Shown here: positions 31,454 to 52,088 of the stretch, piece by piece
How the letters are laid out: every line of letters begins with the position of its first letter
How positions within the stretch are numbered: the first letter of the stretch is position 1
Source: Bdellovibrionales bacterium
Lineage (GTDB): Bacteria; Bdellovibrionota; Bdellovibrionia; Bdellovibrionales; UBA1609
Direction of reading: 5' to 3'
NCBI GenBank assembly: GCA_965200875.1
Contig: OZ241456.1
Span: forward strand, 1,561,774 to 1,625,773
DNA length: 64,000 bases
Notes under the pieces: model-generated
What the model was told of the DNA's origin: nothing
Databases searched by the model: none
The model's input: the letters and a program-made list of their open reading frames with translations, nothing else
Translations under genes and position numbers: made by a program

Positions 31454-31463
31454 TTTTTGTCCC

Positions 31464-31892: not shown

Positions 31893-31956
31893 TTAAAAAA
31901 ACCTCATTTGTTCCAGTTCAGGAAAATAATCTTGCCAGTTTAACAACACTTTTGCA

Positions 31957-34620
31957 TTAAGAAACATTACTCTGTTTCTTAGACCCTTTAATTTTTTGGT
32001 TTGGAAAGTCCAAAATTTTTAAGGATTCGATACCTCGGTCATCAATAATTTTAACAGCGATTTTTTTATTTTTACCTTTTTTGAAAGGGAGGGAGACTGT
32101 CCCTCTGTATTTTTCTATAAGGCTTTGGTCTATTTCTGATTTCAAGCTTTTAGCGAGCTTTGCAAAGCCACCTTTTTTGCTCTCCATAGGGAAAAACACC
32201 TGCCTTGGAAATAAAGCCTCTCCGTCATAATCCGTATCCAAAACCCACATCGCGATTTTGTTTTTCCCACCGGATTCAATTTGATTGGTAGCGGGATTAT
32301 AGTAATCAAAGCCCTGCACTTCCACAATATACTCATCTTTTTTAGAGTTGTTTTTTACTTCCACATCGGGAGAACCTACAAGCCAAAAACTTTCTTTGGA
32401 TGATGATTTTTTCTTCAAATCAGAAGTTTGCAAATCCATATTCATTTCAATTTTAATAGCTTTTGTTCTGCCTGATTTATAGCCATCGATAAGACGACTT
32501 GCCTCCGGATCAAAACGAAAAGAGGCAAAAACAAGAATATCCGGTTTTTCTTTTTTTACTTCCATTTCCTTTAAAGCTTGTTCCACCTGTCTTTTATCCA
32601 TAGGAGCATGTTCCGGGCCAAAGGAGATCACAACCGATCTTGGGTTTTTAGTCATCCCTTCTGCATGCAAAAACTTAAATCCGGGAAGCCTTTCCAATTG
32701 AGAGAAATCCATATCTGTTGCAATCCCATTTTTACATTTAATACCGGATCTTCTCACTTCATCCAGCCATTCATATTTAAAACTGATTTTTTTGCTTTGC
32801 CCCAAGCTTTGAACTGTTGGAGAGGGGACAGCCTCCACTGTAAAAGGGCCTGTCACACGGGCTTTTGTCTTGTCCTTCAAGGGCTTATCATACAAAACTT
32901 CCTCTTTAGCTGGTTCATTATTGGCAATAGAGCCTAAGGTGATATGAGGGACTGTTTTATATTGAAATCCTGAGCTTACTCCTTCGGTTTTATTTTTTAG
33001 TTTATAGTAGTCAAAGTGAGCTGTCATTAGCCTTTGCTTGGCAAGAGTTATGGCCACACGGGAGGTATCACAAGTGATCCACCGCCGGCCCCATTTTTCT
33101 GCCACATAAGCTGTCGTACCGCTCCCGCAAGTGGGATCTAAAACCAAGTCCCCCGGGTCTGTCGTCATAAGAAGGCAACGCTCAATAACTCTTGTAGATG
33201 TTTGTACAATATAGCTTTTATCTAATTCTGTAAAAGTATCAATCCAATTGTTATTAATAGCTTGAACAGGCAAATCATCAAAATATTGAATATAATTTAA
33301 CCAATTTTTTGTTCCATATAATCTTTTTTCTTTAGCTAATTTTTTCATTCCGTTAAAGTTGGTTTTCCATGAATATCCTTTAGAGGATGAATAATTTTTT
33401 CCTTTATATTTAAAATCGAAAGTGCAGCTTGGAGTGTATCCAGAAGAAAAGAGATTTGAAAGACGAAAGAGTTTAGCATTACTTGGAACTAAGGATAGGT
33501 CTTTTTTTTCATCTTTAGTTAGACTCCTTCTCTCTCCATGTGGAAACTCTACTTTTGTAAATGGTGTATCTTTTCCTTTATTTTTTTCAGTAAATAGCCT
33601 TTGAAATTTAATATTTTCAATATTTTTTGTGTACCATATTATGTAATCCGATATTTCTGGAATCAATTTTATTCCAAGAGGACTATTTGTTCTAAATGAT
33701 ATTTGTCGAACAAAATTCTCTCTTCCAAAAATCTCATCCATAAGGTTTCGGACCAGATGGACATTTTCATCAGAGATTTGCACAAAGCAGGAACCACTTT
33801 CAGTTAAAAGTTCTCTTGTGAACAAAAGTCTATCCCTTAAATAGGACAAATAGGAATGGATGCCAAGCTCCCAAGTATCTCTAAAAGCCTTAAGCATTTC
33901 AGGTTCCGCTGTCAGATCCTCATCCTTTTTGTCTTTGACATCCCTTTTATTGGTAAAGGGCTGAAAGTTAGAACCATATTTAATCCCGTAAGGGGGATCA
34001 ATATAGACACATTGGATTTGCCCTCCCATGCCTTCTTTTTCAAGTAAAGAGTTCATCACCAGAAGGGAGTCACCGGCAATTAGACGGTTTTTCCAAAGCT
34101 TTTCATGCCGATAAAAGTCGATGGCGGAAGAGTCAGGCAGTTTCCCCTCTTTTTTAAAAAGAGATAGCTGCTCATAGTTAGCCGTGTTGGTTTTTCTCAC
34201 TTGCTCTATCACAGCCCTTGGGTCAATTCTTTCATGAGTGTGGAGTGAAATGGTGGGAACCTCAAAAGAGGCTCGCTCCTTCTTACCTGCCCAGTTTAGG
34301 TAAGGCTCAGATAAGTTTTTCAGTTTAGTAAGTGCCTCTTTGGCCTTTGTATAGGCTGTTTTATAGGATTCTTCAGAGGCTTCTTTATCGGCTGATTCAG
34401 GAGATCCTGAAAGACCATTTTCGATAATTTTTTCGATCTTTTCTCTTTTGGAATCAAAGCACAATTCAGGGGAAATATGAGGATCAAAAGCATATTCTTT
34501 TTTCTCCTCCTTAAGTGGTTCTGTTTTACTATTAACCAAGCCAACAGAAGGATTGTTTTTCCGCTTTTTCTTCTTATGCTTAAACTGTGTAATATCCAAT
34601 TTTCGAGCTGGTTTTCCCAT
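31957..34620 (-). CDS. mod: Type III DNA methyltransferase, Mod subunit (beta-class N6-adenine/N4 family) with a long C-terminal extension
   Basis: Motif IV VYIDPPYG precedes motif I DPTCGSGTTAYVA (beta permutation). Adjacent to res. Confidence 0.85.
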   Translation of the reverse strand: MGKPARKLDITQFKHKKKKRKNNPSVGLVNSKTEPLKEEKKEYAFDPHISPELCFDSKREKIEKIIENGLSGSPESADKEASEESYKTAYTKAKEALTKLKNLSEPYLNWAGKKERASFEVPTISLHTHERIDPRAVIEQVRKTNTANYEQLSLFKKEGKLPDSSAIDFYRHEKLWKNRLIAGDSLLVMNSLLEKEGMGGQIQCVYIDPPYGIKYGSNFQPFTNKRDVKDKKDEDLTAEPEMLKAFRDTWELGIHSYLSYLRDRLLFTRELLTESGSCFVQISDENVHLVRNLMDEIFGRENFVRQISFRTNSPLGIKLIPEISDYIIWYTKNIENIKFQRLFTEKNKGKDTPFTKVEFPHGERRSLTKDEKKDLSLVPSNAKLFRLSNLFSSGYTPSCTFDFKYKGKNYSSSKGYSWKTNFNGMKKLAKEKRLYGTKNWLNYIQYFDDLPVQAINNNWIDTFTELDKSYIVQTSTRVIERCLLMTTDPGDLVLDPTCGSGTTAYVAEKWGRRWITCDTSRVAITLAKQRLMTAHFDYYKLKNKTEGVSSGFQYKTVPHITLGSIANNEPAKEEVLYDKPLKDKTKARVTGPFTVEAVPSPTVQSLGQSKKISFKYEWLDEVRRSGIKCKNGIATDMDFSQLERLPGFKFLHAEGMTKNPRSVVISFGPEHAPMDKRQVEQALKEMEVKKEKPDILVFASFRFDPEASRLIDGYKSGRTKAIKIEMNMDLQTSDLKKKSSSKESFWLVGSPDVEVKNNSKKDEYIVEVQGFDYYNPATNQIESGGKNKIAMWVLDTDYDGEALFPRQVFFPMESKKGGFAKLAKSLKSEIDQSLIEKYRGTVSLPFKKGKNKKIAVKIIDDRGIESLKILDFPNQKIKGSKKQSNVS

Positions 34621-34667
34621 AACTTCCCCTTCCTTAGGACTTCATATTTAGCCAACACATTACTTTA

Positions 34668-34802
34668 TGTCTGCCGTGAAAAATCTCCAATGTTTTAATT
34701 ATCAACACTTTTTTTCATGTACTTTCCCAAGGAAACTGAAAGCCAAGTTGTTGGCTTTCAGTCCCGTGAAAACGGGAATCCAGGAAAATCACATACTTTT
34801 TC
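34668..34802. repeat. Family-A repeat, full-length diverged copy
   Basis: GCCGTGAAAAA ... both hairpins ... CTTTTTCAC. First of two tandemly arranged copies between the Type III R-M system and the next module. Confidence 0.9.
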
Positions 34803-34915
34803 ACTTGCGACTTTCTTATTCAAAACCCACAAATTAGCGTTTCGGAAAAGACAAAACAGGTCTTAAGAAAAACAAAAAAACCGGACTTTTGGTTCAGAAA
34901 AAACCTGAATAAATA

Positions 34916-35055
34916 GTCCGCCGTGAAAAACCCATAGTGCTTTAATTATCACACTCTTTTTTCAGGTACTTTCCCAAGGAAACTGAAAGCCAAGTTGTTG
35001 GCTTTCAGTCCCGTGAAAACGGGAATCCAGGAAAATCACATACTTTTTCACGGAC
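34916..35055. repeat. Family-A repeat, 140-bp reference copy
   Basis: Imperfect TIRs GTCCGCCGTGAAAAAC / CTTTTTCACGGAC. Internal hairpins ACTGAAAGCCAA-GTTG-TTGGCTTTCAGT and CCCGT-GAAA-ACGGG. Confidence 0.9.
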
Positions 35056-35242
35056 CAATAAATAATAAAGCATTATATTCGTGAAAATTCGGATTTCGAA
35101 TTTTTACTCCTTCAAAACCATTTAAATAGCCAATTTTAAATGATCCCAATTTTGCTTATGAAAGAAATAAAACAATCAATAATTTTTAAAAGGGAGTATA
35201 TTATGCAAAAAACAAAGAAAAAAATAGAACAAGCGATATATT

Positions 35243-37657
35243 TTATTGCCAATTATACGACAGATGACCACTTTTTGTTTGTATCCTGTCATTTGATGCA
35301 TCTTTTGCAGATAATTTTTCTCCTGTTTTTGAGCAAATAAAATATTTTTCAAAATTTTCTATATCGTGAAAACAGGCTTTCATATCAGCAAGATTTTCGT
35401 TATATAAATTATCATGGGAAGCTTCATTTCCAAAAAATTGTGTACTTCTTAGATTTTCAATAGCTTGAATGACATTGGAGTCCATCTTTTTCTTTTTTAC
35501 TCTTGCTAACAAAGAGCTTAACAACTCTTCTAAAGTTCTTTTTTCATTAGTTGCACCTGACTTAAATTTCATTTCGGCCCCTAGATTTTCACAAATTTGT
35601 TTTAAAAGGTTTTCTACATATTTGCGCAGTTTATTTCCAAGAACATCTACATTTGATTCTTCAATCTGTTTTCTAATACTCTCTTTTAAATGTAATATTG
35701 GTTCATCCATGAAAGAACCAATATCATTATTCCACTTTATTTGCTTAATTAACCAACTTTTTGGCTTAACCAGAGAGGATAAATATTTAAACCACTCGTC
35801 TTCATGGGTTAAAACAAGAATTTGCCACTCAGAAAACTTGTTTACAAGAAGTTGACCGAATTGTTGCCTGTGATTTTTATCAAAACTGGATATAATATCA
35901 TCAAGTATAAAAAAATTATTTTTCTTGTTAAAAATTTTTACAGAAGACAGAAACAAACATAATCCCAGACAATTTATATAAGATTCACTCATAAGCATTT
36001 TTGGACTCTCCAAAGCAGTATTCCTAAAGTTTAAATGATATGATATTCCCACAAAGTCATCTTCATTATCCAATATAGGTTTTAATTTTATATCTTTGAT
36101 ATTGTCTGTAGGATTCATAAAAACGAATAACTGATTCATTTCAGTAGAAGTAGAGTCTAAAAACAACTCCATTTCATTTTTTTGGCAATCTGAAAAAGAC
36201 TTATATATTTCACTTACAGTTTTTATCTGAGAGCGAATTACTGTTTCCTCATTTTTTAACTTCTGAATATCCTGAAAACACGCTTTTGCCAAGTTGATTT
36301 TTTTTGCCATGTCAATTTTGGAAATACCTGATTCCTTTATAGAGTTTTTAAATAAATCAAGCGGACTTTTTATTTTATCAAAAGAAAAATCTTTTGCCTT
36401 ACAAATATATTCATCATAGTAATCTATCCTGTCAAAATTCAGCTCTCTTGAAAAAACTTTATACAACTCTCTGAAGCTTTTTAGTGAGTGTTCCAAGTAC
36501 TCTTTGGTGCTACTAAAATCAGAAGTACCCATACAACTTAATTCTCCAACTCTTTTTAGCATTTCACCTGTTTCTCTGATACCTTCTTCTATGTTGTTCT
36601 TATTTTGTTTTAAAACTTCTATTTCATCCTCTAAAGTTTGTAATACATCCAATCTTTCTTTTATCGAATTTAAAAGCTCTTCTGCTGGTATATCCTGCAA
36701 ACATAAAGGACATTTGTCCTTTTCATCTAGGATTTTTGTTTTAATAATATGCTCTGCATTTTTAAGAAGAGGTTTTATTTTAATGCCTTTTAGTTTTTGT
36801 TTATCTTCAAAAATTTTCTTAAAGGAGTTTTGGAAAATACTTAAGTGTTCAAGGAGCTGATTAAAGACAGACTCTTTTGCTTTAATGTTTGATAGCTCTT
36901 TTGTTATATCAGTTTTTAGCTGTAATTTTGGATCAGGTTTTTCTTTTGCAAGTTCTTTTTCCAATTTTTTAAAAGATTCCCAGGAATTGATATCAAATCC
37001 AAGATTTAATTCTTTAATCATAGAGTGAATTGTTGAAAAAAATTGCTCCTCTGTATTTATGTTTGTATTTATAACTTTCAGTAAGTCTGCTTGTTTGGAT
37101 GATATTTGACTGTCAAAGCTTTTTGTTTTGAGAGTTCTCTTTAAAGAATTTACTGATTTTTTTAACACTTCTTTTGTTTTCTTCACTTCTGAGTAACCAA
37201 TTAAGTTGGATATATCTGATAGCCTTTCTGATTTTGTGGAAATAATAAATTTTGTCAACTCATCACTACGAATCATTAAGTTTTCCATCTGAGATTGATT
37301 CAAATAGTTTTTAAAAGAATCTTTATTGTTGGAATGTCTGGACACAAAGCGATTGTTTTTTGTTTCCAATGTTTTTTTTGAATTTAAGGGGGAGTTAGAA
37401 AACTCCACTTCCACCTGACAAATATCTTGGTTATTTAGCTCTTTATTGCGGATGCCGGCATTTTTAGGTATTTCTTCTCCTTTTAAGTGTGATATTTTAT
37501 CATACAAAAACCATTCAATACTGTCAGTTATAGTGCTTTTTCCTGTTCCATTATCTCCATATAACAAAAAGGATTGCTTTTTAAGAGAGATATCTAAATC
37601 TTTTTTTACCCCTCTAAAACCTTTTATTGTTATTTTTTGTATTTCATTTCTCTGCAT
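35243..37657 (-). CDS. PrrC/RloC-family (AAA_13-like) ABC ATPase with a coiled-coil CxxC zinc hook and a HEPN-like C-terminal domain; putative anticodon nuclease
   Basis: Walker A GDNGTGKST, about 400 aa of K/E/L-rich coiled-coil-like sequence containing CPLC (36710-36721), signature-like MSESYINCLGL, Walker B FFILDDIISSFD, LTHE, and a tail with LRKYVE ... LRSTQFFGNEASH. Confidence 0.6.
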   Translation of the reverse strand: MQRNEIQKITIKGFRGVKKDLDISLKKQSFLLYGDNGTGKSTITDSIEWFLYDKISHLKGEEIPKNAGIRNKELNNQDICQVEVEFSNSPLNSKKTLETKNNRFVSRHSNNKDSFKNYLNQSQMENLMIRSDELTKFIISTKSERLSDISNLIGYSEVKKTKEVLKKSVNSLKRTLKTKSFDSQISSKQADLLKVINTNINTEEQFFSTIHSMIKELNLGFDINSWESFKKLEKELAKEKPDPKLQLKTDITKELSNIKAKESVFNQLLEHLSIFQNSFKKIFEDKQKLKGIKIKPLLKNAEHIIKTKILDEKDKCPLCLQDIPAEELLNSIKERLDVLQTLEDEIEVLKQNKNNIEEGIRETGEMLKRVGELSCMGTSDFSSTKEYLEHSLKSFRELYKVFSRELNFDRIDYYDEYICKAKDFSFDKIKSPLDLFKNSIKESGISKIDMAKKINLAKACFQDIQKLKNEETVIRSQIKTVSEIYKSFSDCQKNEMELFLDSTSTEMNQLFVFMNPTDNIKDIKLKPILDNEDDFVGISYHLNFRNTALESPKMLMSESYINCLGLCLFLSSVKIFNKKNNFFILDDIISSFDKNHRQQFGQLLVNKFSEWQILVLTHEDEWFKYLSSLVKPKSWLIKQIKWNNDIGSFMDEPILHLKESIRKQIEESNVDVLGNKLRKYVENLLKQICENLGAEMKFKSGATNEKRTLEELLSSLLARVKKKKMDSNVIQAIENLRSTQFFGNEASHDNLYNENLADMKACFHDIENFEKYFICSKTGEKLSAKDASNDRIQTKSGHLSYNWQ

Positions 37658-37850
37658 TGTTTTTACTCCGTATTTCATCAAGAGCATTGGAAATATTTGT
37701 GGATGACAAATTACCCTTATTATGAAGACTTATTATAATATCAATAATTTCCGGGCAGGAGTATTGGTCTTTATCTTCATTTAATTTCTTAAAAAAAGAT
37801 TTAATCAGCTCTGCCCCAGTTTTTGGTTTTTTATTGTTTTCTTCACTCAT
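37644..37850 (-). CDS. 68-aa hypothetical protein, translationally coupled on both sides
   Basis: Its ATG at 37850 overlaps the upstream TGA (ATGAGTGA). Its stop at 37644 overlaps the ATPase ATG at 37657. No family recognised. Confidence 0.5.
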   Translation of the reverse strand: MSEENNKKPKTGAELIKSFFKKLNEDKDQYSCPEIIDIIISLHNKGNLSSTNISNALDEIRSKNNAEK

Positions 37851-38292
37851 AAAAGCTCCAATCAATATCGAAGTGATTTTCCGGCACATCAGATAAATCC
37901 GGAAAACCAGATTTGTTGTTGCAAATAGGGTAACAGCCGTATTTTTTTAAAAAATCCAAAATAAAAAAACTTTCCAAATCTTCAACAGACTTTTTCCAGA
38001 TAGAACTTAAAGAGCTGAAGTTTAAATATGTAAAATACACTTTTGATTTTTTTTGATAATTAAACAAACCTTTGTTATTTGAAGCTCCTGTTAGATGATC
38101 TTTAAACCTAGATTTTATACTGTTTGTTTTTTTTTCGCTCATGCCAATATAGATCAACCTTGAGCTTTTGAAAGGATAAGGTATTTTGTAGTCTTTACTT
38201 TTTAGAAAATAAAGCCCGATGGCTTTATCCTCAATAAGAGAAATTTCTGTATGAGTTAACTCTGTTAAAGCCGGAAAATTTATTTTATACAA
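37843..38292 (-). CDS. GIY-YIG nuclease domain protein
   Basis: GLYFL (GIY), LIYIGMSE (YIG), SRFKDH (Arg), and EDLESFFILDFLKKYGCYPICN (Glu ... Asn) in the canonical order and spacing. TTG start. Confidence 0.55.
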   Translation of the reverse strand: MYKINFPALTELTHTEISLIEDKAIGLYFLKSKDYKIPYPFKSSRLIYIGMSEKKTNSIKSRFKDHLTGASNNKGLFNYQKKSKVYFTYLNFSSLSSIWKKSVEDLESFFILDFLKKYGCYPICNNKSGFPDLSDVPENHFDIDWSFYE

Positions 38293-38310
38293 TTATAATA
38301 ATCCTTATTT

Positions 38311-38514
38311 TTATAGCTTCTTATATCTATATTTGTTTTTGATATTTGCACTAAAGTATTTGCCATGTGATTCTGCATTCATTAAGTTCGTATGTTCGTC
38401 TTTTGGCACATCAAAATATTGATAAACACTTCCATCTTTAAACTCTATTTCTAAAACTTGTTCTTCATGTCCTATTGATTCCAAGTTTGAAGATTCCACT
38501 TGTTGTCTTTGCAT
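38311..38514 (-). CDS. KTSC domain protein
   Basis: VESSNLESIGH...LEIEFKDGSVYQYFDVP...SHGKYFSANIKNKYRY matches the KTSC-domain pattern. AGGAGG RBS 7 nt before the ATG at 38514. Confidence 0.65.
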   Translation of the reverse strand: MQRQQVESSNLESIGHEEQVLEIEFKDGSVYQYFDVPKDEHTNLMNAESHGKYFSANIKNKYRYKKL

Positions 38515-38980
38515 CTTTATACCTCCTTCATTTGCGATAACCAATTATCTTTATTATTAATTTAAACATTATTTTTCTTTAATACTTTTAATAAATCCCT
38601 CTGTATCAAAATCAATTCATTTGAAATGGTAGACTGTTTTTAATTCATAATATTACCTCCTAAAGTTTTATTTACACTTTTTTTTTCACTTTGAACAAAT
38701 AGCGTTATTCTCAGTAAAATTTTGTCGTAAAAGATGTTTTTTCTGGATTTCCTGCTTTCATGTGAAGACAGGAGATTTTAAATTCCTCGTTTCAGTAAAA
38801 GTAAAGAGCAAACAAATAAAAGATATGTATTTTTTATTTCTGAATTTTGAAAAACTCTTTCTTTGTATATTTTTTAAACTGTTACTGTTTCAGTTATTGT
38901 TTTTCCTTTTTCATGTAGAGTTTAAACAATTTCTAAAGAAGTTTCCAAGGAAAAAGCTGTTAACACATTTGAACATTTAC

Positions 38981-39005
38981 AATAATGGCATCATAATTCT
39001 TCCCT
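38981..39005. repeat. 25-bp perfect direct repeat, copy 1, just downstream of the Rpn stop
   Basis: AATAATGGCATCATAATTCTTCCCT, identical to 39326-39350. The offset is 345 bp, which is in frame. Confidence 0.95.
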
Positions 39006-39012
39006 TTGACTC

Positions 39013-40068
39013 TTAGTCACCACTCTTAAGTTTTTTAATTTCTTCTTCGGAAAGCCCCGTGCCTTTGCAAAGAACATGCAAATCCACTCCAGTTTTAAGT
39101 AATTTTGCAATCAGCTCTTTTTGACCTTCCTGACGGCCTTGTTGCATGCCTTGTTGCATACCTTCCTGTATACCTTCCTGCCGGCCTTGTTGCATGCCTT
39201 GTTGCATACCTTCCTGTATACCTTCCTGCCGGCCTTGTTGCATACCTTCCTGTATACCTTCCTGACGGCCTTGTTGCATGCCTTGTTGCATGCCTTGTTG
39301 CCTAGCTTCATCATACGAAGATTTTAATAATGGCATCATAATTCTTCCCTCCTCTTTCACTGTGGCTTGTTCAATCTCTTTTACAATCTCCCAATTAAAT
39401 GCTGGATCATATCGCCGTATATAATCTACTGCTCGACCGATCAATGCCTCTCGCTCACTGGAACTAAGACCCTGACCTATCGTAAAAAGCTCCTTCACTT
39501 TTGATTCATCAAGTCGCCAGATATGTTTTAGAATATACAAAATAGGACGAGTTGTCAAATCCCTGGCCTCCTTTGACACATCTAAAGACTGAATATTCAA
39601 GACCCGCGGACGAAAATTCAACACATTATCTGCAAATCTCTCTTTTAATTCACCTTGGAAATTATACAGGTACTCGTGAAAATCAAGAGGCCATTTACCT
39701 GTCTTTGTTGCACTCTGGTTAATAAACACAGGGAGAATAGGATTTCGTGTATCTTGATAAATCCCTACCTGATATATTAAAAACTGTCTCATCAAATCTT
39801 GGTCGTATTGGCTTTTGTGTTCCATTAAGAATAATATTCTAGCAGGTTTTTGAGAGCTTTTAAGCAGAGCTGAAACCAAGAGGTCCATGCGTTTTTCTTT
39901 TGCGGATTTGTCAATAAAAGTTGTGGCTTCTGTTTTAAGGGTGTTCCAATCAAAAAGTTTCATTTCCTCTTTTGAGAGAACGAGGCTTAGGATATCCACA
40001 CAATACTTGGTTTGTGAGTAAACCTCTTTGAATAAATGATCATGTAAAAAATTTCTTTTTGTTTTCAT
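39013..40068 (-). CDS. Rpn family recombination-promoting nuclease / putative transposase (PD-(D/E)XK, Transposase_31-like)
   Basis: N-terminal FKEVYS..., a D...E-x-K core (RMDLLVSA...ILFLMEHKS), a C-terminal Q/G/M-rich repeat block, and an HTH-like tail GTGLSEEEIKKL. Confidence 0.7.
   Translation of the reverse strand: MKTKRNFLHDHLFKEVYSQTKYCVDILSLVLSKEEMKLFDWNTLKTEATTFIDKSAKEKRMDLLVSALLKSSQKPARILFLMEHKSQYDQDLMRQFLIYQVGIYQDTRNPILPVFINQSATKTGKWPLDFHEYLYNFQGELKERFADNVLNFRPRVLNIQSLDVSKEARDLTTRPILYILKHIWRLDESKVKELFTIGQGLSSSEREALIGRAVDYIRRYDPAFNWEIVKEIEQATVKEEGRIMMPLLKSSYDEARQQGMQQGMQQGRQEGIQEGMQQGRQEGIQEGMQQGMQQGRQEGIQEGMQQGMQQGRQEGQKELIAKLLKTGVDLHVLCKGTGLSEEEIKKLKSGD
39125..39304. repeat. Coding tandem repeat, 15 x 12 nt with 48-nt higher order, inside the Rpn gene
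   Basis: Units of the form CCTTSYTGNNNN (for example CCTTCCTGACGG, CCTTGTTGCATG, CCTTCCTGTATA) encoding QQGM/QEGI/RQEG tetrapeptides. Confidence 0.9.
39326..39350. repeat. 25-bp perfect direct repeat, copy 2, inside the Rpn gene at the N-domain / C-domain junction
   Basis: Identical to 38981-39005. On the coding strand it reads AGGGAAGAATTATGATGCCATTATT, preceded by AGG so that the SD-like AGGAGGG sits 7 nt before the first ATG of an ATGATG pair. Confidence 0.95.
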
Positions 40069-40123
40069 AGCTCTGGAAAATGGAATATAAAAAGATTTTT
40101 GTCAATAGAATTTGTATATTTTT

Positions 40124-42292
40124 CTATTTTAATCTTTTTTCTGCTAATCTTTGGTTTTGTATAGAAAAACCTAATAGACTAGCAATTTTTTGTTTCTTCT
40201 TATATTTAATAGGGTGCATATAAATATATTGTGCCACTATATGCTTTAAAAGACATATAGCCTGAGTATTTTTTTCATCCTGTAGCTCTTTATACAGAAT
40301 CCTGATTCTATCAACATCTAAATCTTTTTTATGCCAAGTATGAATATACAAATTAATTAACTTGGAAGCCACTGTGTTACTCTCTGTGTTTACAGAGTTA
40401 GCAATATCAACAATTTTATAGTATCCTATAGAGTGTATAATTTTGTGTAACCATCCCCATAAAATACCATAAGACATCTGATCCACTATCACTTTACTGA
40501 TTTGTTCTATTTTCTCTGGAGATGATTCTTTTTTGGAAATTTGTTCCAATCTAGATTGGATAAACTTTTCAATTATCGTTCTTTCATTTAACATGAATTC
40601 CATAAAACTTTTTAATAATCTCAATCCGACATTTTGAGCTTCTTTAAATAAAATTTTTAACTTTTCTTTTTCCAATGATCCGTATTGATTTCTAAGAATC
40701 TGTCCAATTATTTCCATCGTTCTTGCAGATTTTTTAATTTCAATTAAAGTGCTATTTTCAGTGTTCATCTGTTCTGCGTCAGTATCATTCGTAGAGCGTT
40801 GTTTATCTTTGATTTCCAATTCTTTACTTCGTTCTTTTTCTACACTATGAGTAGATCCAGGTAATGTAATATTATTAAAAATACTATGCAGTTCTTTGAT
40901 AAATCCTTTTTCATCCCCTGATAAAGACGCTTCCTTATATTGGCTAAATATATTATGAGTATAATCAGTAATATTTTCTATTAAATTTTTATCTTTTGTA
41001 TGATGAGTGATAAAAACTAAAATATTAGCACTGTCTTTTTGATACACTTTAGATATTAATTTATTAATTACTTCTTTTTTGTTGTTAATATTTTCTGCAA
41101 TATACTTGGCAACAAAATAATAATATATATATATGTATCCAAAATTGTATAAATTATTTTTCTCTCTTAATATATTTGCACTTACTAAAATTTCTGAAAA
41201 ATTGCGCCCGCGAGGTACAATAAACTTTTTCCCATATTTTTTTAAAAAATCCTGTAATTGAGTATCGGAGATATTTCTTACATTATTGTCAAACATCCAA
41301 TACGCAAGGTGTGTAAGGAAATTAAAATAAGAGTCTATCTCTTCTACTATAATATGTATTTTAGAGAGTGATATAGTTATCATTGCTTGATAACAATGAC
41401 CATAAGAGGTTTGTTGTAAGTCTTGATTGGGACTTATCAGCTCAATAGAATTAAAAATAGATAAAATAAAAAAAGGGTAGCTTGGAACAATATTATGACC
41501 AATAATAATGTTAATAGAACTAGTGCATTGATCCAATCTGTTTAAATGCTGTTTGTTTTGATAATCAAAATCTGTATCTTCATGTAGGGAGATACACTTT
41601 TTGATAAGTTCTTCTCTTTTTTTATGTCCAAAAACTAATATTGAATAGCTTTTAAAATATTTATATTTTGATTTTTCAGATGGTATATTTGTTAATTGAT
41701 TAGCTAAAAGAATTGCACCTTGAAAATGATCTCGAATGGATAAAATAAATTTATCGAAATCTTCTTTGGTTATTTTCTTTCTTTCATCTACATCATCAAT
41801 AATTAAAATTCTTTTTTCTTTAGGAACATGGATCGACCCTGAAAATTGGTTTTTATATTCTTTTTGTGTAGCTTTTTTCAAAGCTCCAGATTTAGGAATT
41901 TTATTGCCTTCCATGAGGACTGGATAAAAACCGGCCTTCATATATCGCAAAAATAAAATATGAGCTAGGGCTGTCTTTCCACTTTGTTCTTCTCCATAAA
42001 GTAAAATATATGGATTATCAAATGTATTAATTGCTATTAATTTTTCAGAATTTATTTCGTTATGCTCTAAATTTACATCAGCAGTTTTGTCTTTTGTTGT
42101 AATGTCTGGATACACAAACTGTTTATCTAATGGTGTTGTATCAAAAGAGTTTTTCAGTAATTGATTTTGAAAATCTGGGTTTATTTCAGGTTTTGAGATT
42201 TTATCAACAACATGTTTTATACCTTCATATACATTTTTCCAAGCTGAGTCTTTATCATTCCATTTAGTTATAGCTTTGCCATCTTTTGGCAA
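40124..42292 (-). CDS. STAND/NLR-like P-loop NTPase, the C-terminal 722 codons of a TIR-NTPase gene split by an in-frame TAG
   Basis: Walker A GEEQSGKT and Walker B RILIIDDVDE. The ORF begins at an in-frame TTG whose product reads LPKDGKAITKW, the normal continuation of a TIR domain. Confidence 0.65.
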   Translation of the reverse strand: MPKDGKAITKWNDKDSAWKNVYEGIKHVVDKISKPEINPDFQNQLLKNSFDTTPLDKQFVYPDITTKDKTADVNLEHNEINSEKLIAINTFDNPYILLYGEEQSGKTALAHILFLRYMKAGFYPVLMEGNKIPKSGALKKATQKEYKNQFSGSIHVPKEKRILIIDDVDERKKITKEDFDKFILSIRDHFQGAILLANQLTNIPSEKSKYKYFKSYSILVFGHKKREELIKKCISLHEDTDFDYQNKQHLNRLDQCTSSINIIIGHNIVPSYPFFILSIFNSIELISPNQDLQQTSYGHCYQAMITISLSKIHIIVEEIDSYFNFLTHLAYWMFDNNVRNISDTQLQDFLKKYGKKFIVPRGRNFSEILVSANILREKNNLYNFGYIYIYYYFVAKYIAENINNKKEVINKLISKVYQKDSANILVFITHHTKDKNLIENITDYTHNIFSQYKEASLSGDEKGFIKELHSIFNNITLPGSTHSVEKERSKELEIKDKQRSTNDTDAEQMNTENSTLIEIKKSARTMEIIGQILRNQYGSLEKEKLKILFKEAQNVGLRLLKSFMEFMLNERTIIEKFIQSRLEQISKKESSPEKIEQISKVIVDQMSYGILWGWLHKIIHSIGYYKIVDIANSVNTESNTVASKLINLYIHTWHKKDLDVDRIRILYKELQDEKNTQAICLLKHIVAQYIYMHPIKYKKKQKIASLLGFSIQNQRLAEKRLK

Positions 42293-42322
42293 GGCTTGAA
42301 TGTTTTTTAAAACAGTGTCTTT

Positions 42323-42631
42323 CTATGCACAGTCTCTTAAAATTACCGGAATCACAATAGTATTTTTTTTGTCTTTTAAATTTAAAGCAATATTCATCTC
42401 TTTCTTACAATTATTAGAAGCAAGGAAATCTGGGCTGAGTAATAACAAAATAATATGGGCTTCTTTCATTTTTTTTTCTATTACAGGATCCCATTCTTCA
42501 CCTGCTTGGATTTCTTTGTCTGACCAGTCAGATATTTTACCTTCATCTCTTAAAAGAGTAAGGTGTTTTTCTAAAGAGTCTTGATGTTTTGCATCTATAT
42601 GTGTATAGCTGTAAAATAAACGAATGTTCAT
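42323..42631 (-). CDS. TIR domain fragment (102 aa) ending at an in-frame amber codon
   Basis: LFYSYTHIDAKHQDSLEKHL...EAHIILLLLSPDFLASNNCKKEM...VIPVILRDCA-TAG matches the bacterial TIR pattern up to the usual C-D/P-W position. Confidence 0.7.
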   Translation of the reverse strand: MNIRLFYSYTHIDAKHQDSLEKHLTLLRDEGKISDWSDKEIQAGEEWDPVIEKKMKEAHIILLLLSPDFLASNNCKKEMNIALNLKDKKNTIVIPVILRDCA

Positions 42632-42833
42632 AATGAATGTTACCTAGTTAGATTTATTTTAGATTCTCAAAAGAGAATCGTTATAATATATTTCATTCAG
42701 TACTTTTATGCAAATAAATTTTTATATAATTTTTTGAAGATGTACTGTGTTGTTTACGATGTTCCATTTTTTACAGCGAGATTGTCCAAAAAATTGTGAT
42801 GGTTAAGAGATTGTTCAAAGACTTTTATGTAGA

Positions 42834-43427
42834 TTAGTCCCAGGTTGTTTTAGCCCAGCAAATACCAATGATTTTACCTTTGTATTTGTTTTCTCTTAGA
42901 AAGTCCGATATGGCCCGCAAATGTGATCCGGTGGTTATCACATCATCCAAAATATATAATATTTTAGGTTCTTTGTTTTTAAACCCTTTCCAAATATAAT
43001 TTTGCTTAAAAAATTCAGGGTTTCTTTCCCCGGAAAGATGAACAGACTCTTGATCCTCTTTTATTTCAACAGGCCATTCAACCAACCACCCTAGCAGTGA
43101 TTGTAAAAGTTCCCTAAATAAATCTTCAAATCTATTATTATATTCAGGATGAGATTTTGTTTTAGAACTTGGAACAGCAGTTAACACCCAACCCTTTGGG
43201 TTTGTTTTTAGTAACAGTTCAACATCTTCTTTAAATTGCTTAATAGCTTTTTCACGATATGACCATTCTGGCGTGCATCTTTTGGAAGGGGATTTTTTAA
43301 AATTCAAAATCAGAGAATTTGTTGGACCACCTTCATAGCCCGTACTGGATTTGTATTCTCTCGCATATACCCAAATATCGTCAGGTTTTATATGAGGTAA
43401 ATGTTGTTCTTTAAATTTATTCCACAC
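42834..43427 (-). CDS. Phosphoribosyltransferase (type I PRTase, ComF-like)
   Basis: PRPP-binding loop ILYILDDVITTGSHL. GTG start overlaps the DprA-like stop by 11 nt. Confidence 0.7.
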   Translation of the reverse strand: MWNKFKEQHLPHIKPDDIWVYAREYKSSTGYEGGPTNSLILNFKKSPSKRCTPEWSYREKAIKQFKEDVELLLKTNPKGWVLTAVPSSKTKSHPEYNNRFEDLFRELLQSLLGWLVEWPVEIKEDQESVHLSGERNPEFFKQNYIWKGFKNKEPKILYILDDVITTGSHLRAISDFLRENKYKGKIIGICWAKTTWD

Positions 43428-44379
43428 TGGACTGATGATCTATATGTTTTAAAATATCTGAGGTTTCTTTTACTCTGATAGCTCCTCGTTTTTCATAAGT
43501 GGAGGGCCATTTGATGTTTAGATTGTCAAAACAGGAGTCCATTATAAATAGTTTTTTGTTTTGCCTAAAACATTCCCTCGCCTGAACAAGAGATCCACTT
43601 GTATCTCCCGCTTCCACAATGACAGTGGCTTTTGAAATAGACGCCATTGTTTTGTTCCTTCTTGGGAAATGAAATTTACGATAATTAAAAGGTTCTTTAG
43701 CGTATTTGTAAAAAGGGACCTGACTGATCAGTAAAAAATCCTTTGCAATTTTATCCTGTAAATTTTTATTTTCTTTAGGATAATATTTGTTGATAGGGGT
43801 ACCTATAACTCCTATAGTGAGCTTATTATTATCAATAGCCGATTGATGGGCTACTGTATCAATCCCTAAAGCTAAACCTGACACAATGGTAAATCCCTCA
43901 TCTGACAATTCTTTGGATAAATTTCTGGCGTTTTTGATTCCTTCAGCAGAGGGTTTTCTTGATCCCACTATTGAAATGCAGGGAGTTTCTAATATATCCA
44001 AATTTCCTTTGCAATAAAATAGTCCTATGGGGTATTGACTTCTTAAATTCTCCGGGTATTGAAAAGCTTTATTTACAACTATTGAAAAATCTCTCATTCC
44101 ATCACAAAATGCAGTATCTAAAAAGCCTTGCACTTCATTTTTTATTTGGTCAGGAGTCTTTTTAAATGAAAAAAGATCCAGCTGATGTGGTATTTGTTTT
44201 AACGCTTCAGAAGGAGTGTTATTAACAAACATTTCCTGTAAAGCTTTTTCTTTTAAAGTTTTTTCTTCATTGCTGTGGATAGCCCATAGCACTTCATAAG
44301 CAAGCATCTCCTTTGAAGGAGAGATTACATTTTTTTCTATAAAACTTATTATATCCTGCATATTAAAGAATACTGCCAT
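43417..44379 (-). CDS. DprA/Smf-like Rossmann (SLOG superfamily) protein
   Basis: GSRKPSAEG...FTIVSGLALGIDTVAHQSAI...IGVIGTPINKYYPKENKNL...LLISQVPF matches the DprA core. Confidence 0.75.
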   Translation of the reverse strand: MAVFFNMQDIISFIEKNVISPSKEMLAYEVLWAIHSNEEKTLKEKALQEMFVNNTPSEALKQIPHQLDLFSFKKTPDQIKNEVQGFLDTAFCDGMRDFSIVVNKAFQYPENLRSQYPIGLFYCKGNLDILETPCISIVGSRKPSAEGIKNARNLSKELSDEGFTIVSGLALGIDTVAHQSAIDNNKLTIGVIGTPINKYYPKENKNLQDKIAKDFLLISQVPFYKYAKEPFNYRKFHFPRRNKTMASISKATVIVEAGDTSGSLVQARECFRQNKKLFIMDSCFDNLNIKWPSTYEKRGAIRVKETSDILKHIDHQSSVE

Positions 44380-44390
44380 TAAGTTATTAA

Positions 44391-44530
44391 CAAGTCAAAA
44401 TAACACACCGCGAGGCGAGTTCGGCTTTGAGCACGGAGCTGGCGAAGACTGATCCGTGGCAAAACACCTATGTTTTCGTCCTAGCGATGAGGTATGAACA
44501 AAGTAAACCGGTCATATAAAAAGACTTTTT
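44391..44530. repeat. Family-B repeat, diverged copy in inverted orientation
   Basis: CGCGAGGCGAGTTCGGCTTTGAGCAC...GTGGCAAAAC...GAGGTATGAAC aligns to the reverse complement of 47640-47745. Begins 12 bp from the DprA-like start codon. Confidence 0.8.
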
Positions 44531-44734
44531 GTTGCTTGCGATTATTTGTATCCTGATTTCTTCTGTGAAAAATCCCTATAATGTGGAAAAACCCCCGTAA
44601 TGCCTTGTTTTGAACTACATAGTCTTTTGACTTTTCATCAACAACCTATTATTTTGTGCGTTATTACTTTCCGTTTTTAAAGAAATATGTCAAATATTTC
44701 CTAAATAGTACTAAAAACATACAAAAATATAAAA

Positions 44735-45544
44735 ATGCTTAAGCCTTATTTTTCAGAAGATTCTTTCAAGCTCTATCATGGGGATTGTCGTGATGTTTTG
44801 AACACTATTCCTGCGAACAGCGTGGATATGGTTTTTGCAGACCCCCCTTACAATTTGTCAAACGGTGGATTTTCTGTCAAAGCTGGAAAAAGGGTCGATG
44901 TTCATAAAGGAGACTGGGATCAAAGCCTTGGCACAGATAAGGACTTTGCTTTTCATTTAAGTTGGATTAAAGCCTGCCAGCGGGTGTTAAAGCCGGAAGG
45001 CACAATTTGGATCAGCGGAACTTATCATTCCATTTATCAATGCGGTTTTGCACTTCAACAGTCCGGTTTTCGGATTCTTAATGATATCGCTTGGTATAAA
45101 CCAAACGCCGCTCCAAACATTGGTTGTCGCTGTTTTGCGGCAAGCCATGAAACCCTGATATGGGCTTGTAAGGATCCAAAGGCAAAATACACATTTCATT
45201 ATGAAGACATGAAGAACGGTTCTTGGGAAAAAGACTTTATTAAAAAACCAAGCAAGCAAATGCGCTCTGTTTGGGCTGTCAATACTCCAGCCTCTTCTGA
45301 AAAAACATACGGCAAACACCCTACACAAAAACCTTTGGAACTTTTAAAACGAATTGTCAGAGCTTCTTCCAATAAAGGAGATATAATATTGGATCCTTTC
45401 ACCGGAAGCTCCACAACCGGAATCGCCGCTTATCTTTCAGAAAGGTCTTTTATCGGTATTGAGAAAGAAAAAGCTTTTTTGGAGCTATCCATCCATCGCT
45501 TTCAGGATTTAAAAAACTCTTTTCAATTAGAACTTTCCCCTTAA
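44735..45544 (+). CDS. Type II DNA methyltransferase, beta-class N6-adenine/N4-cytosine (CcrM/M.HinfI/M.RsrI-like architecture)
   Basis: FADPPYNL (motif IV) lies upstream of ILDPFTGSSTTG (motif I), followed by the HPTQKP motif. Confidence 0.85.
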   Translation: MLKPYFSEDSFKLYHGDCRDVLNTIPANSVDMVFADPPYNLSNGGFSVKAGKRVDVHKGDWDQSLGTDKDFAFHLSWIKACQRVLKPEGTIWISGTYHSIYQCGFALQQSGFRILNDIAWYKPNAAPNIGCRCFAASHETLIWACKDPKAKYTFHYEDMKNGSWEKDFIKKPSKQMRSVWAVNTPASSEKTYGKHPTQKPLELLKRIVRASSNKGDIILDPFTGSSTTGIAAYLSERSFIGIEKEKAFLELSIHRFQDLKNSFQLELSP

Positions 45545-45550
45545 AATACT

Positions 45551-46333
45551 ATGGCACAAGCAAACAACAAATCTTGGAAAAAAATATTCAATAAATACAA
45601 CATTCACAAACATTCTTTTGATAAAGCACCCTTTCCTATTTCAGCGGAACAAATTAAAAAAGCCTGTCAGGAGTTCGAAAAAACCGTAGCAAAAGAAGTT
45701 CGTATACTTTGTACACAAACCTGCCAAGAAGATCGCCCTGATATTTTTAAAGAAAAAGGACTTTTTTTATTACCTGTTAAAAACGGCCAATATAATATCA
45801 TAAAAGGTGAGGGTTATATTGATATTCCAGCTATTATGGCTACTAAAGATTACACATCAAAATTGGATTTTGAGTTGGATACAGCAAAAGTTGGTCAATC
45901 AGAGATGCAACATCTTGACTATGCTTATGCTTCAAGCCTTATAAAAACATTCATAGGAGATGAAAACCTTGTTTTAACCATTCGAGGCAGGAAATATACA
46001 GAAAGGCCGTTTGAATTTTTTGTTAACAAACACCGGATCCAAGTCTGTGGAGTACAGACGGAAGTGGATGCTGGTTATGAAGGGAGAAATACTGTTGTTT
46101 TAGTGGAAGCGAAAAACAGACAAACGGACAATGTGATTATCAGACAACTTTATTATCCTTTTAGAAAGTGGCAACAAGAAACCAATAAAAAAGTCATAAA
46201 TTTATTTTTTCAGAAAGATTCTAAAACTGGTGTTTTCTCTATTTGGCAATTTGGATTTGATTGCAAAGAAAACTATAACAGTATAAAACTGGAAAAATCA
46301 GAAAAATTTAATATTTATAATGCAAATAAATAG
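45551..46333 (+). CDS. Putative Type II restriction endonuclease (PD-(D/E)XK)
   Basis: Starts 6 nt after the methyltransferase stop. Candidate catalytic motif VDAGYEGRNTVVLVEAK (D...E-x-K). Confidence 0.6.
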   Translation: MAQANNKSWKKIFNKYNIHKHSFDKAPFPISAEQIKKACQEFEKTVAKEVRILCTQTCQEDRPDIFKEKGLFLLPVKNGQYNIIKGEGYIDIPAIMATKDYTSKLDFELDTAKVGQSEMQHLDYAYASSLIKTFIGDENLVLTIRGRKYTERPFEFFVNKHRIQVCGVQTEVDAGYEGRNTVVLVEAKNRQTDNVIIRQLYYPFRKWQQETNKKVINLFFQKDSKTGVFSIWQFGFDCKENYNSIKLEKSEKFNIYNANK

Positions 46334-46362
46334 GTGAAAGGAGGGGTTTCACGCTCGACAAA

Positions 46363-47385
46363 TTAGAGCTTTAAGCTTTCCTGTAGCTCTTTAATTTTCT
46401 CTGCTGATACACCAGTGATTTCAATGATATCAGAAATCTGCATATTTTTTTGGAGCATATTCAAAGCTATTTGTTCCATGCCTGTCTTCAAACCTTTCTC
46501 CATGCCTGTCTTCAAACCTTTCTCCATGCCTGTCTTCAAACCTTTCTCCATGCCTGTCTTCAAACCTTTCTCCATGCCTTTGTTAAAAGCATAAGCTTTC
46601 TCTGCACGCTGATCTCTTAAAAACTTCTCTCGTGCTTCCTCTTCTCGGCGCAAATCCTCATCCTGGGACAAATCTTTTAAATGTTCCATTGCTCTTCTCA
46701 TCTCTTCCCCCTTACTCGTTGATAATATATCCCACTCTCTTTTTCCTATGTGGCAGGACTCTTTTAAAAGATAGCACCATAAGTCCCGCAAATCAACTAT
46801 CTCCTTCAGACTCTCTGGCCTCGCTCTCATAAACTTACTTAATTCCACAAACACTATCTTTTCATCATCGATCAAGGAAGAATGTGGATCTTTATCCGAT
46901 CGCAAAGAAAAGGAATTGATAAAATCTCTATACTTTTTTACCGGAAGAACATCAAAGTCTGTGAAAACCAAAGAATATGCAGGGCAAATACTGCTGTAAT
47001 CTGCTGACTTCTTTAAACTCTCCGTGTAAAGTCTAGACCAATAAAAAAGCACTCTTTTCAAAAAACCTATTTTTAAGACAGACTGTATTTCCACATTCAC
47101 AGTTTCTCCGGTACTGAGTCTTATTCTCAAATCCAGAACAATTTGCTTGTTGTCTGCCAAAGAGGGATAAAGGGAGCTATCTAAGAGAGTTAATGTTTCT
47201 TCATCAACAAGGGAATCCAATGCTTTTTTATCTCCTATAAAGGATATATCTTGCACTTTTTGATTGGGATGAAGGGGTAAAAAGGCATTTAAAAGAGATT
47301 TCAGGACTTCTTTGTTTTTGGAGAAATAGGTCTTGAACATGAGGTCCTGGCTTAAGTTTAGAAATTTGCTACGATTTGTTTTCAT
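46363..47385 (-). CDS. Rpn family / PD-(D/E)XK nuclease family transposase-like protein (PDDEXK_2 / TIGR01784-like)
   Basis: VLDLRIRL...TVNVEIQS core (D...E-I-Q), a C-terminal (GMEKGLKT)x4 repeat, and an HTH-like ITGVSAEKIKEL tail. Confidence 0.7.
   Translation of the reverse strand: MKTNRSKFLNLSQDLMFKTYFSKNKEVLKSLLNAFLPLHPNQKVQDISFIGDKKALDSLVDEETLTLLDSSLYPSLADNKQIVLDLRIRLSTGETVNVEIQSVLKIGFLKRVLFYWSRLYTESLKKSADYSSICPAYSLVFTDFDVLPVKKYRDFINSFSLRSDKDPHSSLIDDEKIVFVELSKFMRARPESLKEIVDLRDLWCYLLKESCHIGKREWDILSTSKGEEMRRAMEHLKDLSQDEDLRREEEAREKFLRDQRAEKAYAFNKGMEKGLKTGMEKGLKTGMEKGLKTGMEKGLKTGMEQIALNMLQKNMQISDIIEITGVSAEKIKELQESLKL
46477..46581. repeat. Coding tandem repeat, 4 perfect copies of a 24-nt unit plus a partial fifth
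   Basis: CATGCCTGTCTTCAAACCTTTCTC at 46477, 46501, 46525 and 46549, then CATGCCTTT. Confidence 0.95.
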
Positions 47386-47604: not shown

Positions 47605-47932
47605 CCCGTGAAAAAGAGTGTTTATATGTACAGCTTATTTGCTCATACCTCACCGCTCGGTCTCAAACATGCGTTTTGCCACACACGCGTCTTTCAGTCG
47701 CGGTGTGCTCAAAGCCGAACTCGCCTCGCGTTGGGTATGAGCAATAAGTTTTTTACATTTTTCCGGCAAACAAAGTGTTTCGTTATAAAACTTTGCAAGT
47801 ATTTTCCGAACTAACAAGTGGCTCGTAAAAAAGCCAAGTTGTTGGTTTTTCAGTCCCGTGAAAACGGGAATTTTGTTGAGTTTTAGGCAAATGTTCCATC
47901 CATTTTCCTTAAAAAAATGTACTTTTTCACGC
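47605..47932. repeat. Composite repeat: family B (long variant with a 27-nt insert) fused to a family-A half copy
   Basis: CCCGTGAAAAAGAGTGTTTATATGTACAGCTTATTTGCTCATACC..., then GGGTATGAGCAATAAG ... AAGCCAAGTTGTTGGTTTTTCAGTCCCGTGAAAACGGG ... CTTTTTCAC. Confidence 0.85.
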
Positions 47933-49446: not shown

Positions 49447-49905
49447 GACGGAGCTTAAAGACGCGTGCGCGAAAAAGTGCATGTTTGATTATTCCAAACG
49501 GGGAAGTATTAGTAAGAGCACTTATCCACTAAACGGACTTATTCAAGATCGACTATTGAGTCACCTGTGAAAAAGTATGTTATTTTTTTCTGGATTTCCG
49601 TTTTCACGGGACTGAAAAGGATTTTTCACGGCTGAATAAATAATAAAGCATTGTTATTACTTGATTTTTTTTATAAAAGGTTCGGAAAAAATTGCAAGGT
49701 CTTACAATACAACCTTTATTTTCTTGCAAAAAGTATCAGTGAAAAAGATTTTACCAATACCCATTGCGAGGTGAGTTCGGCTTTGAACACGTCGCGACTG
49801 AAAGACGCGCGCGTGGCAAAACGCCTGTTTGAGCCCGAGCGGTGAAGTATTGGTAAGAGCATACTCTCACTAAACAGATTTATTCAAACCCAACTATTTA
49901 GGCCG
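49447..49905. repeat. Cluster of three repeat copies: B fragment, A fragment, then a full inverted B
   Basis: 49447-49550 is a B right half, 49564-49633 is an A copy lacking the large hairpin, and 49640-49870 is the long variant of B in inverted orientation with stem TACCAATAC/GTATTGGTA. Confidence 0.85.
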
Positions 49906-50014: not shown

Positions 50015-50767
50015 ATGCGTATTATCTTTTTTATGCTTTATTTTCTAAGTGTTTCATATACAGAAAATAGTAGTAGTTCTTGGGATAGTGTTGCAGACCA
50101 AGAAAAACCAAAGGAAAATACCCGAGACCGTAATACTTGTGAACAGAAAGAAGACAATTTAGAATTGAAACATAATAATACGCCCGTGCCTCTTAATTGC
50201 AGTTGTAAGTCGAAAGGTAATAACGAAACACTGGTTGAACAATGTTTCAACACATATATTTGCAAGGAAAAGTGTAAAGATTATATCAGCGATAATGCAA
50301 ACTTTTGTGATAACATTCCCAACAACAGGAACAATGAGAATGCTCTTTGCCAAAGAAGCTGTAATGAAGATCCTCCTAACTTCATGACACCATCTTCCGC
50401 AGTTTCCCAGGCTGTAAATAACTGTGATCAGAAAAATAGAAGAAAGCTACAAGACCAGTTAGTTGAAAACTGTCGGAGTAGAATAAACAACATTGAAAGA
50501 TCGCCACCTCATACTGGTGCGACATTGGTGTGTCCGGGTAGAGCCGGCTGTGAAAGGTATTGCCAAAGCAAGGCTCAGGAACAAATCAATGGTATGCGAA
50601 GCAATTGCGAAGTGAAAACTAAAGGTGGTTTCAGGCTGTGTGAGTACAATTTGAATAATCGGTTACGCCATGTTCTTCTACAAAATTCTGGCCAATTACC
50701 TCAGGTTTTCACGGGACTAAAAGCCAACAACTTGGCTTTCAGTTTCCAAGAGAGACCTTTCACATAA
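50015..50767 (+). CDS. Cysteine-rich secreted protein, unknown function
   Basis: GGGAGG RBS, a signal-like N-terminus, and many Cys residues scattered through the mature part (I did not make an exact count). The last ~21 codons are encoded by a family-A repeat. Confidence 0.45.
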   Translation: MRIIFFMLYFLSVSYTENSSSSWDSVADQEKPKENTRDRNTCEQKEDNLELKHNNTPVPLNCSCKSKGNNETLVEQCFNTYICKEKCKDYISDNANFCDNIPNNRNNENALCQRSCNEDPPNFMTPSSAVSQAVNNCDQKNRRKLQDQLVENCRSRINNIERSPPHTGATLVCPGRAGCERYCQSKAQEQINGMRSNCEVKTKGGFRLCEYNLNNRLRHVLLQNSGQLPQVFTGLKANNLAFSFQERPFT

Positions 50768-51962: not shown

Positions 51963-52033
51963 AAAATATGGATGAAAAACCCTAAAAAATGTGTTAAAAT
52001 CTATTTTATAGACTTTTTTGTTATTATATAGTG

Positions 52034-52088
52034 GTCTGTGAAAAAGTATGTGATTTCCCTGGATTCTCGTTTTCACGGGACTAAAAGA
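52034..52088. repeat. Family-A repeat, half copy upstream of metK
   Basis: GTCTGTGAAAAAGTATGTGATTTCCCTGGATTCTCGTTTTCACGGGACTAAAAG. Confidence 0.8.

Follow-up and report, generated by a model that had tools for sequence, protein, structure and literature searches.

A premature TAG codon at the conserved TIR tryptophan of a TIR-nSTAND4 gene in a Bdellovibrionales defence island

Interrupted reading frame and ancestral codon

We analysed a 64,000-nucleotide stretch of a Bdellovibrionales bacterium genome (contig OZ241456.1, positions 1,561,774–1,625,773; hereafter the window), in which a gene combining a TIR domain with a STAND NTPase occupies positions 40124–42631 of the minus strand. Translation in one frame gives 835 codons and a terminal stop, and this frame is interrupted by a single internal TAG. 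An ATG at 42631 starts an open reading frame (ORF) of 102 amino acids (42631–42323, minus strand), which ends in VIPVILRDCA and is followed by the TAG at 42325–42323. Ten sense codons in the same frame (KDTVLKNIQA) join this stop to a TTG at 42292–42290. The TTG is the first possible restart and the mechanical start of the second entry in the ORF list, a P-loop ORF of 722 codons that runs to the natural end of the gene at 40126–40124. At both this stop and the premature one, the tetranucleotide is TAG-A. Re-translation reproduces what an earlier note, made by a model from the letters of this DNA, had given: the coordinates, the succession of 102 residues, 10 codons and 722 residues, and the single 835-codon frame.

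There is no motif resembling a Shine-Dalgarno sequence within the 25 nucleotides upstream of the TTG (CACTGTTTTAAAAAACATTCAAGCC), nor an in-frame ATG between the stop and the P-loop. Two runs of adenines in the TIR ORF, A9 (42469–42477, GAAAAAAAAATG) and A8 (42365–42372, GACAAAAAAAATACT; both minus strand), are potential slippage sites. Both are in frame here and have no relation to the stop.

To identify the residue expected at the stop, we searched 5.8 billion protein clusters with the complete translation, in which the stop was entered as X, and obtained 450 matches at E ≤ 1e-5. The best 120 of the 450 are nearly all fused TIR and nSTAND4 proteins of ~840–880 amino acids, and the sole match with 100% identity is the 722-residue ORF itself. 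The two closest orthologues, P0002 and P0003, are 64–67% identical to the window protein, with ~66% and ~65%, respectively, in this search; no orthologue closer than ~66% was found in any search. When 119 homologues were aligned with MAFFT, all 115 with a residue in the stop column proved to carry tryptophan, and the remaining four, which are gapped at this position, are N-terminally truncated proteins. In an alignment of 107 rows (A2), 24 columns are invariant, among them that of this tryptophan, Trp103. In DNA, the sequence is TGTGCATGGAAAGACAC in each of the two nearest orthologues and TGTGCATAGAAAGACAC in the window, a difference of a single G>A transition. The flanks are identical, with TGTGCA-TGG-AAAGACAC in the two orthologues and TGTGCA-TAG-AAAGACAC in the window. 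Since the stop sits in an invariant tryptophan column, the ancestral codon at 42323–42325 can be deduced as TGG.

The repaired gene offers 450 single-base routes to a stop codon, 58 of which are GC>AT transitions, and 18 of these 58 fall in its nine tryptophan (TGG) codons. A tryptophan codon is an ordinary nonsense target; the position of the stop reveals the ancestral codon and is in itself no sign of design.

The fused form prevails throughout the family. When 1.84 billion representatives clustered at 50% identity were scanned in full, 1,705 of them proved to be relatives (E ≤ 1e-30), mostly with lengths of ~850 amino acids. Among full-length loci from species-representative genomes, 50 of 54 are uninterrupted.

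Apart from the stop, the gene is in good order. Of 62 columns with a conservation of 95% or more among 106 full-length homologues, the window protein matches 60; the two it misses are the stop itself and one Y>F exchange, which is within the normal range of intact members. Tajima relative-rate tests, in which the window protein was compared with P0002 and P0003 using four outgroups, show no acceleration (chi2 0.01–2.3). E78 of the CxxE motif, the Walker A residues G213, G218 and K219, and the Walker B residue D279 are all retained. Since the rest of the gene shows no decay, the lesion is either very young or not real. Three statements of the earlier note therefore hold against the family comparison: that the TAG stands at the conserved TIR tryptophan, one G-to-A step from TGG; that no other decay is visible; and that the two parts belong to one gene, the alternative of two normally separate genes being at odds with the fused proteins among the best 120 matches.

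Domain architecture and relation to known systems

Pfam recognises TIR_2 (PF13676; 57.2 bits, cut-off 28) and TIR (PF01582; 36.6 bits, cut-off 21.3) in the repaired protein, and it finds both in the 102-residue ORF alone (56.9 and 39.2 bits, respectively). A PADLOC model for ThsB1-like TIR domains covers residues 5–148 of the repaired protein with 143 bits. Glu78, encoded by GAG at 42398–42400, is invariant in 107 family members and lines up with a glutamate in the Cat1 and TLR15 alignments. From what is generally known of TIR NADases, we take it to be the catalytic glutamate of a site that cleaves nicotinamide adenine dinucleotide (NAD).

The fold was examined on an AlphaFold2 model of orthologue P0002 (predicted local distance difference test score 87, predicted template modelling score 0.80). 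In this model the TIR domain comprises residues 1–148, with strand D at 92–97 and the last long helix at 127–148, and is followed by a P-loop domain and then by a C-terminal half made up entirely of helices. By this comparison the 102-residue ORF (42323–42631) encodes the N-terminal two thirds of the TIR domain, that is, strands A–D and helices A–C. Codons 104–148 (42188–42322), the C-terminal third of the domain in both the orthologue model and the PADLOC match, are severed by the stop. No single polypeptide thus holds a complete TIR fold, as the first ORF ends at residue 102 and residues 103–148 lie past its end.

Downstream of the stop, Pfam identifies nSTAND_NTPase4 (PF24406; 34.6 bits, cut-off 27). 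The Walker A motif GEEQSGKT (G213–T220; 41972–41995) fits the pattern GxxxxGK[ST] and the Walker B motif ILIIDD (I275–D280; 41792–41809) fits hhhhDD. G213, G218, K219 and D279 are invariant in the 107 sequences, and D280 is nearly so. The STAND NTPase and the helical C-terminal module, a putative sensor, together span residues 164–821 (40169–42142) and are supported by NCBIfam, PADLOC, Pfam and Foldseek. Foldseek searches with the P0002 model return NLRC4, RPP1, NLRP3 and EfAvs5 with a probability of 1.00 and E values of 1e-9 to 3e-6. The TM-scores of these matches are low (~0.2–0.25); the alignment with the RPP1 tetramer extends over 571–595 columns and includes the TIR domain.

The closest characterised relative is suggested by NCBIfam model NF053861 (DS8_antiphage), whose positions 331–993 of 994 match residues 164–821 with an E value of 3.6e-152. 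DS-8 (DefensePredictor system 8) is a validated anti-phage system of one protein, in which a metallophosphatase at the N terminus is joined to a STAND NTPase; its defence is lost when the effector is mutated in its predicted catalytic residues or the NTPase in a residue that is likely critical (PMC13092281). DS-8 and the window gene share a homologous STAND NTPase with a C-terminal helical module, and each consists of one protein with its effector at the N terminus. However, the effector is a metallophosphatase in DS-8 and a TIR domain in the window gene, and the window copy carries the interrupting stop. With 508 bits, the window protein also remains under the equivalog cut-off of NF053861 (790), and it is thus not assigned to DS-8 itself. 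In plasmid records, relatives with TIR-STAND and with metallophosphoesterase-STAND architecture occur side by side.

The top PADLOC match of the STAND and C-terminal part is PDC-S60, a single-gene candidate system (E 3.4e-77, positions 199–895 of 906). Profile positions 1–198 are unmatched, so that the N-terminal domain of PDC-S60 either differs or is unmodelled. PDC-S60 is a computational candidate, and no mention of it was found in the literature searched. Judged from its sequence, the window gene is a member of a widespread, uncharacterised TIR-nSTAND4 family, which is a sibling of DS-8 with a swapped effector and a relative of PDC-S60. An anti-phage role is predicted from its location in a defence island and from its homology to validated DS-8.

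The order of effector, STAND NTPase and helical sensor is also that of Avs and bNACHT proteins and of the plant TIR-NLRs RPP1 and ROQ1, both of which match the TIR profile of the window protein. In contrast to Avs and bNACHT proteins, the NTPase belongs to the nSTAND4 group (PF24406), and neither PADLOC nor Pfam reports an Avs or NACHT model at E ≤ 0.01, which places the gene outside Avs1–5 and bNACHT. The TIR domain itself resembles Thoeris ThsB, as seen from its 143 bits on the PADLOC ThsB1 model, and it aligns with Cat1 at E 4e-10, with the CxxE glutamate included. However, no ThsA partner adjoins the gene, the neighbours being Shosta and an Rpn gene, and the locus is therefore not a Thoeris system; ShosA matches a ThsA model at E 0.008 only. 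Unlike Thoeris ThsB and other bacterial TIR enzymes such as Cat1 and AbTir, the window TIR domain is fused to its own sensor, and depletion of NAD+ would thus be a likelier output than production of a signal.

Origin of the premature stop

In the most probable reading, a TIR-nSTAND4 defence gene has recently lost its function through a real nonsense mutation, and no new mechanism is at work. If the intact protein acts as Avs, NLR and DS-8 proteins do, its helical C-terminal domain would sense a phage product, the P-loop NTPase would then drive oligomerisation, and the clustered N-terminal TIR domains would cleave NAD+ through E78 in a response of the abortive-infection type. In the window allele, one G>A exchange would have turned TGG (Trp103) into TAG, and translation would end after strand D of the TIR domain. 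The 102-residue product would lack the last third of the domain and would be uncoupled from the sensor, and any STAND-only product restarted at the TTG would carry no effector. We therefore expect a null allele. Since nothing else in the gene has decayed, the lesion is presumably young. The sequences show the stop, its ancestral codon, the intact state of the remaining gene, the architecture of the family and repeated independent disruptions in relatives; from these and from related systems we infer the NADase chemistry, the phage sensing, the loss of function and the biological origin of the base change.

A G>A exchange matches the usual GC>AT mutational bias, and the interrupted gene has a GC content of 27%, compared with ~37% for the window. 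Disruptions are also found in relatives. Among the 54 full-length species-representative loci, L005, L047 and L065 are frameshifted and L029 has a late stop, so that three to four of them (~6%) are independently broken. In L084 (767–3331; identical to L085 and L086) the codon directly ahead of GEEQSGKT is an in-frame TAA, and the DNA is identical across ENA, JGI/NCBI and Logan assemblies. In L083 (96–2730) a single A is inserted between CCT and GTA, six codons upstream of the same conserved tryptophan. Independent disruptions are thus common in the TIR-STAND family, which favours a real mutation in the window.

Several points weigh against a recent nonsense mutation. The allele is read from one consensus base, and the nearest orthologue with which it can be compared is only ~66% identical. 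The exact proteins form single-member clusters among 15 billion sequences, with no second strain, and a degenerate pattern of 23 nucleotides around the stop codon has no match in JGI metagenomes. The conservation and relative-rate tests cannot tell a very recent mutation from an artefact. The NADase activity, phage sensing and toxicity ascribed to the family derive from knowledge of related families, and the search for a suppressor tRNA covered 64 kb of the 1.83-Mb genome.

One rival reading is a sequencing, consensus or assembly error, in which case the organism would really have TGG and an intact gene. We regard such an error as unlikely. It would account equally well for the perfect state of the remaining gene, and the call is a single base in a single assembly that has no independent copy. 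Moreover, if the source is a metagenome-assembled genome like those of the nearest relatives, the consensus could mask a TGG/TAG polymorphism. However, no other checked gene in the window is split or truncated, which indicates a low local error rate: the Pfam scan shows unsplit ORFs for AlaRS, RecA (positions 1–262 of 262), SMC, GltX, GlpX, Aldedh (9–461 of 461), GcvP, MetK and others. The assembly is a single 1.83-Mb contig, which suggests long reads. Long-read assemblies usually err by indels in homopolymers and not by substitutions, and the stop lies outside any homopolymer or repeat. The genuine disruptions in other family members likewise speak for a mutation. We also considered systematic miscalls linked to methylation at CATG and rejected them, as the window contains 139 copies of this sequence with 161 expected and thus no notable depletion, although this is a weak test only.

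It is very improbable that the two ORFs form a functional system of two polypeptides, in which a short TIR protein reassembles with a STAND protein that is translated on its own. In favour of this reading, the two ORFs are open and lie next to each other, the TTG restart lies 30 nucleotides past the stop, and the family has split copies elsewhere, in pieces of 131 and 755 or of 216 and 625 amino acids. The position of the break argues against such a system, since the stop interrupts the TIR fold directly after strand D and not at the domain border near residue 148. In addition, the downstream ORF has neither a Shine-Dalgarno motif nor an ATG, the split points differ in every other broken member, as expected for random lesions, and the 50 uninterrupted genomic copies among 54 are fused.

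A leaky or conditionally suppressed amber codon, where read-through or a suppressor tRNA of host or phage would provide a small or infection-triggered dose of effector, is likewise highly unlikely. Toxic effectors are plausible targets of dosage control, the frame downstream of the TAG is perfectly preserved, and a suppressor tRNA could lie in the genome beyond the window. However, programmed read-through should leave a conserved stop, and the stop is found in none of the 115 homologues, all of which have tryptophan; the disruptions in relatives lie at other sites and are of other kinds (TAA and frameshifts). TAG is moreover a regular stop here. It ends 11 of the 45 window ORFs (TAA 28, TGA 6), and TAG-A also ends this gene. 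The 141 nucleotides from the stop onward contain no notable RNA fold (z = -0.9 compared with shuffled sequence), and the lone small hairpin downstream of the TAG needs a GGC codon that the orthologues lack. ARAGORN and Rfam detect no tRNA with a CUA anticodon in the window, where only tRNA-Ser(GCU) and tRNA-Arg(ACG) are present. Near-cognate decoding or known phage amber suppression usually inserts glutamine, tyrosine or lysine. Suppression would therefore usually place a residue other than tryptophan in a column where tryptophan is invariant.

A stricter form of suppression, in which the amber acts as a conditional switch and full-length toxin is made only with a suppressor tRNA, for instance from a phage that recodes stop codons, is scarcely credible. 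If true, the gene would be a trap for stop-codon-recoding phages or an effector of limited dosage. An alternative genetic code with reassigned TAG was rejected on the stop codon usage given above. The ranking of the earlier note, which set a leaky or suppressed amber below nonsense inactivation and an error, survives, and nonsense inactivation, the reading it named first, is supported. The amber comes last on account of the unique stop, the regular use of TAG, the lack of a fold and the lack of a CUA tRNA in the window.

Read as a recent nonsense mutation, the locus is one more defence gene, probably of the abortive-infection type, lost by point mutation, and as it stands it adds little. Defence islands are known to turn over rapidly, and TIR/NLR-type effectors presumably carry an autoimmunity cost; such a loss agrees with both. 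It is speculation to take the allele as a readout of the cost of keeping the system. The allele is nonetheless a clean natural knock-out whose repair, TAG>TGG, is unambiguous, and it provides a ready isogenic pair for assays of toxicity and defence. The comparison also places an uncharacterised TIR-nSTAND4 family of ~1,700 clusters at 50% identity beside DS-8. Should reads from one population contain TGG alongside TAG, the locus would offer a modest example of selection still acting on an immune gene.

Neighbouring genes and repeats

The TIR-STAND gene lies in a low-GC defence island (28673–47385) between gcvP (25424–28657) and holA/metK (50955–53322). At one end the island contains a type III-like restriction-modification unit, with a restriction endonuclease of the BPTD_3080 family (28673–31453), a DUF1828 protein (31464–31892) and a type III-like methyltransferase (31957–34620), and an LmuB-like SMC ATPase (35243–37687) with no recognisable LmuA. 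It also includes an ORF of 149 amino acids with weak similarity to GIY-YIG proteins and a KTSC protein. Directly upstream of the TIR-STAND gene is a Shosta system that looks intact (ShosT, 42834–43427; ShosA, 43417–44379), and a type II methyltransferase (44735–45544) is paired with a DUF6996/6997 restriction enzyme (45551–46333).

Two genes for Rpn/YhgA-like PD-(D/E)XK 'transposases' (39013–40068 and 46363–47385) flank the block formed by the TIR-STAND gene, Shosta and the type II restriction-modification pair. Both have 12-nucleotide tandem repeats near their 3′ ends, at 39076–39345 (QQGM/QEGI units) and 46480–46581. In L001 and L002, the loci of the two nearest orthologues, an Rpn gene likewise adjoins the TIR-STAND gene. 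Beyond the TIR-STAND gene, a distant Rpn gene is all that the window has in common with the nearest orthologue genomes.

In L001 (12637–14205) and L002 (12629–14203) the TIR-STAND gene is followed by genes for a ~279-residue protein with no Pfam match and for a DUF5131 (PF07505) protein, which are 79% and 84% identical, respectively, between the two loci. A tblastn search did not find this pair in the window or in the other 80 loci. We considered the loss of partner genes as a sign of decay in the window and rejected it, since the pair is not conserved in the family and thus represents an adjacent cassette and not a conserved partner.

Palindromic intergenic repeats resembling repetitive extragenic palindromes or miniature inverted-repeat transposable elements are dispersed over the window, for example TTTCAGTCCCGTGAAAACGGGAAT (six copies) and GCGAGGCGAGTTCGGCTTTGAGCAC (three copies). 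They are located at 22034, 34669–35074, 44403–44435, 47645–47871, 49554–49850, 50705–50747 and 52063, and one of them forms a 136-nucleotide tandem pair at 34669–35051. Inverted copies with 94–98% complementarity bracket a low-GC segment of ~15 kb (35.0–49.6 kb). The tetranucleotide ACGT is strongly depleted in the window, with 10 occurrences and 56 expected under a second-order Markov model, and other palindromes of four base pairs are near expectation. The depletion suggests an ACGT-specific restriction system in the lineage.

The LepA protein encoded in the window (53584–55491) finds its named matches in Bdellovibrionales, Pseudobdellovibrionaceae and Oligoflexia. It shares 78% identity with the LepA of OZ251471.1, a Bdellovibrionales metagenome-assembled genome which carries P0003. 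A LepA with 92% identity is encoded on a 5.5-kb Logan contig (P0126), indicating that a congeneric organism is present in public reads.

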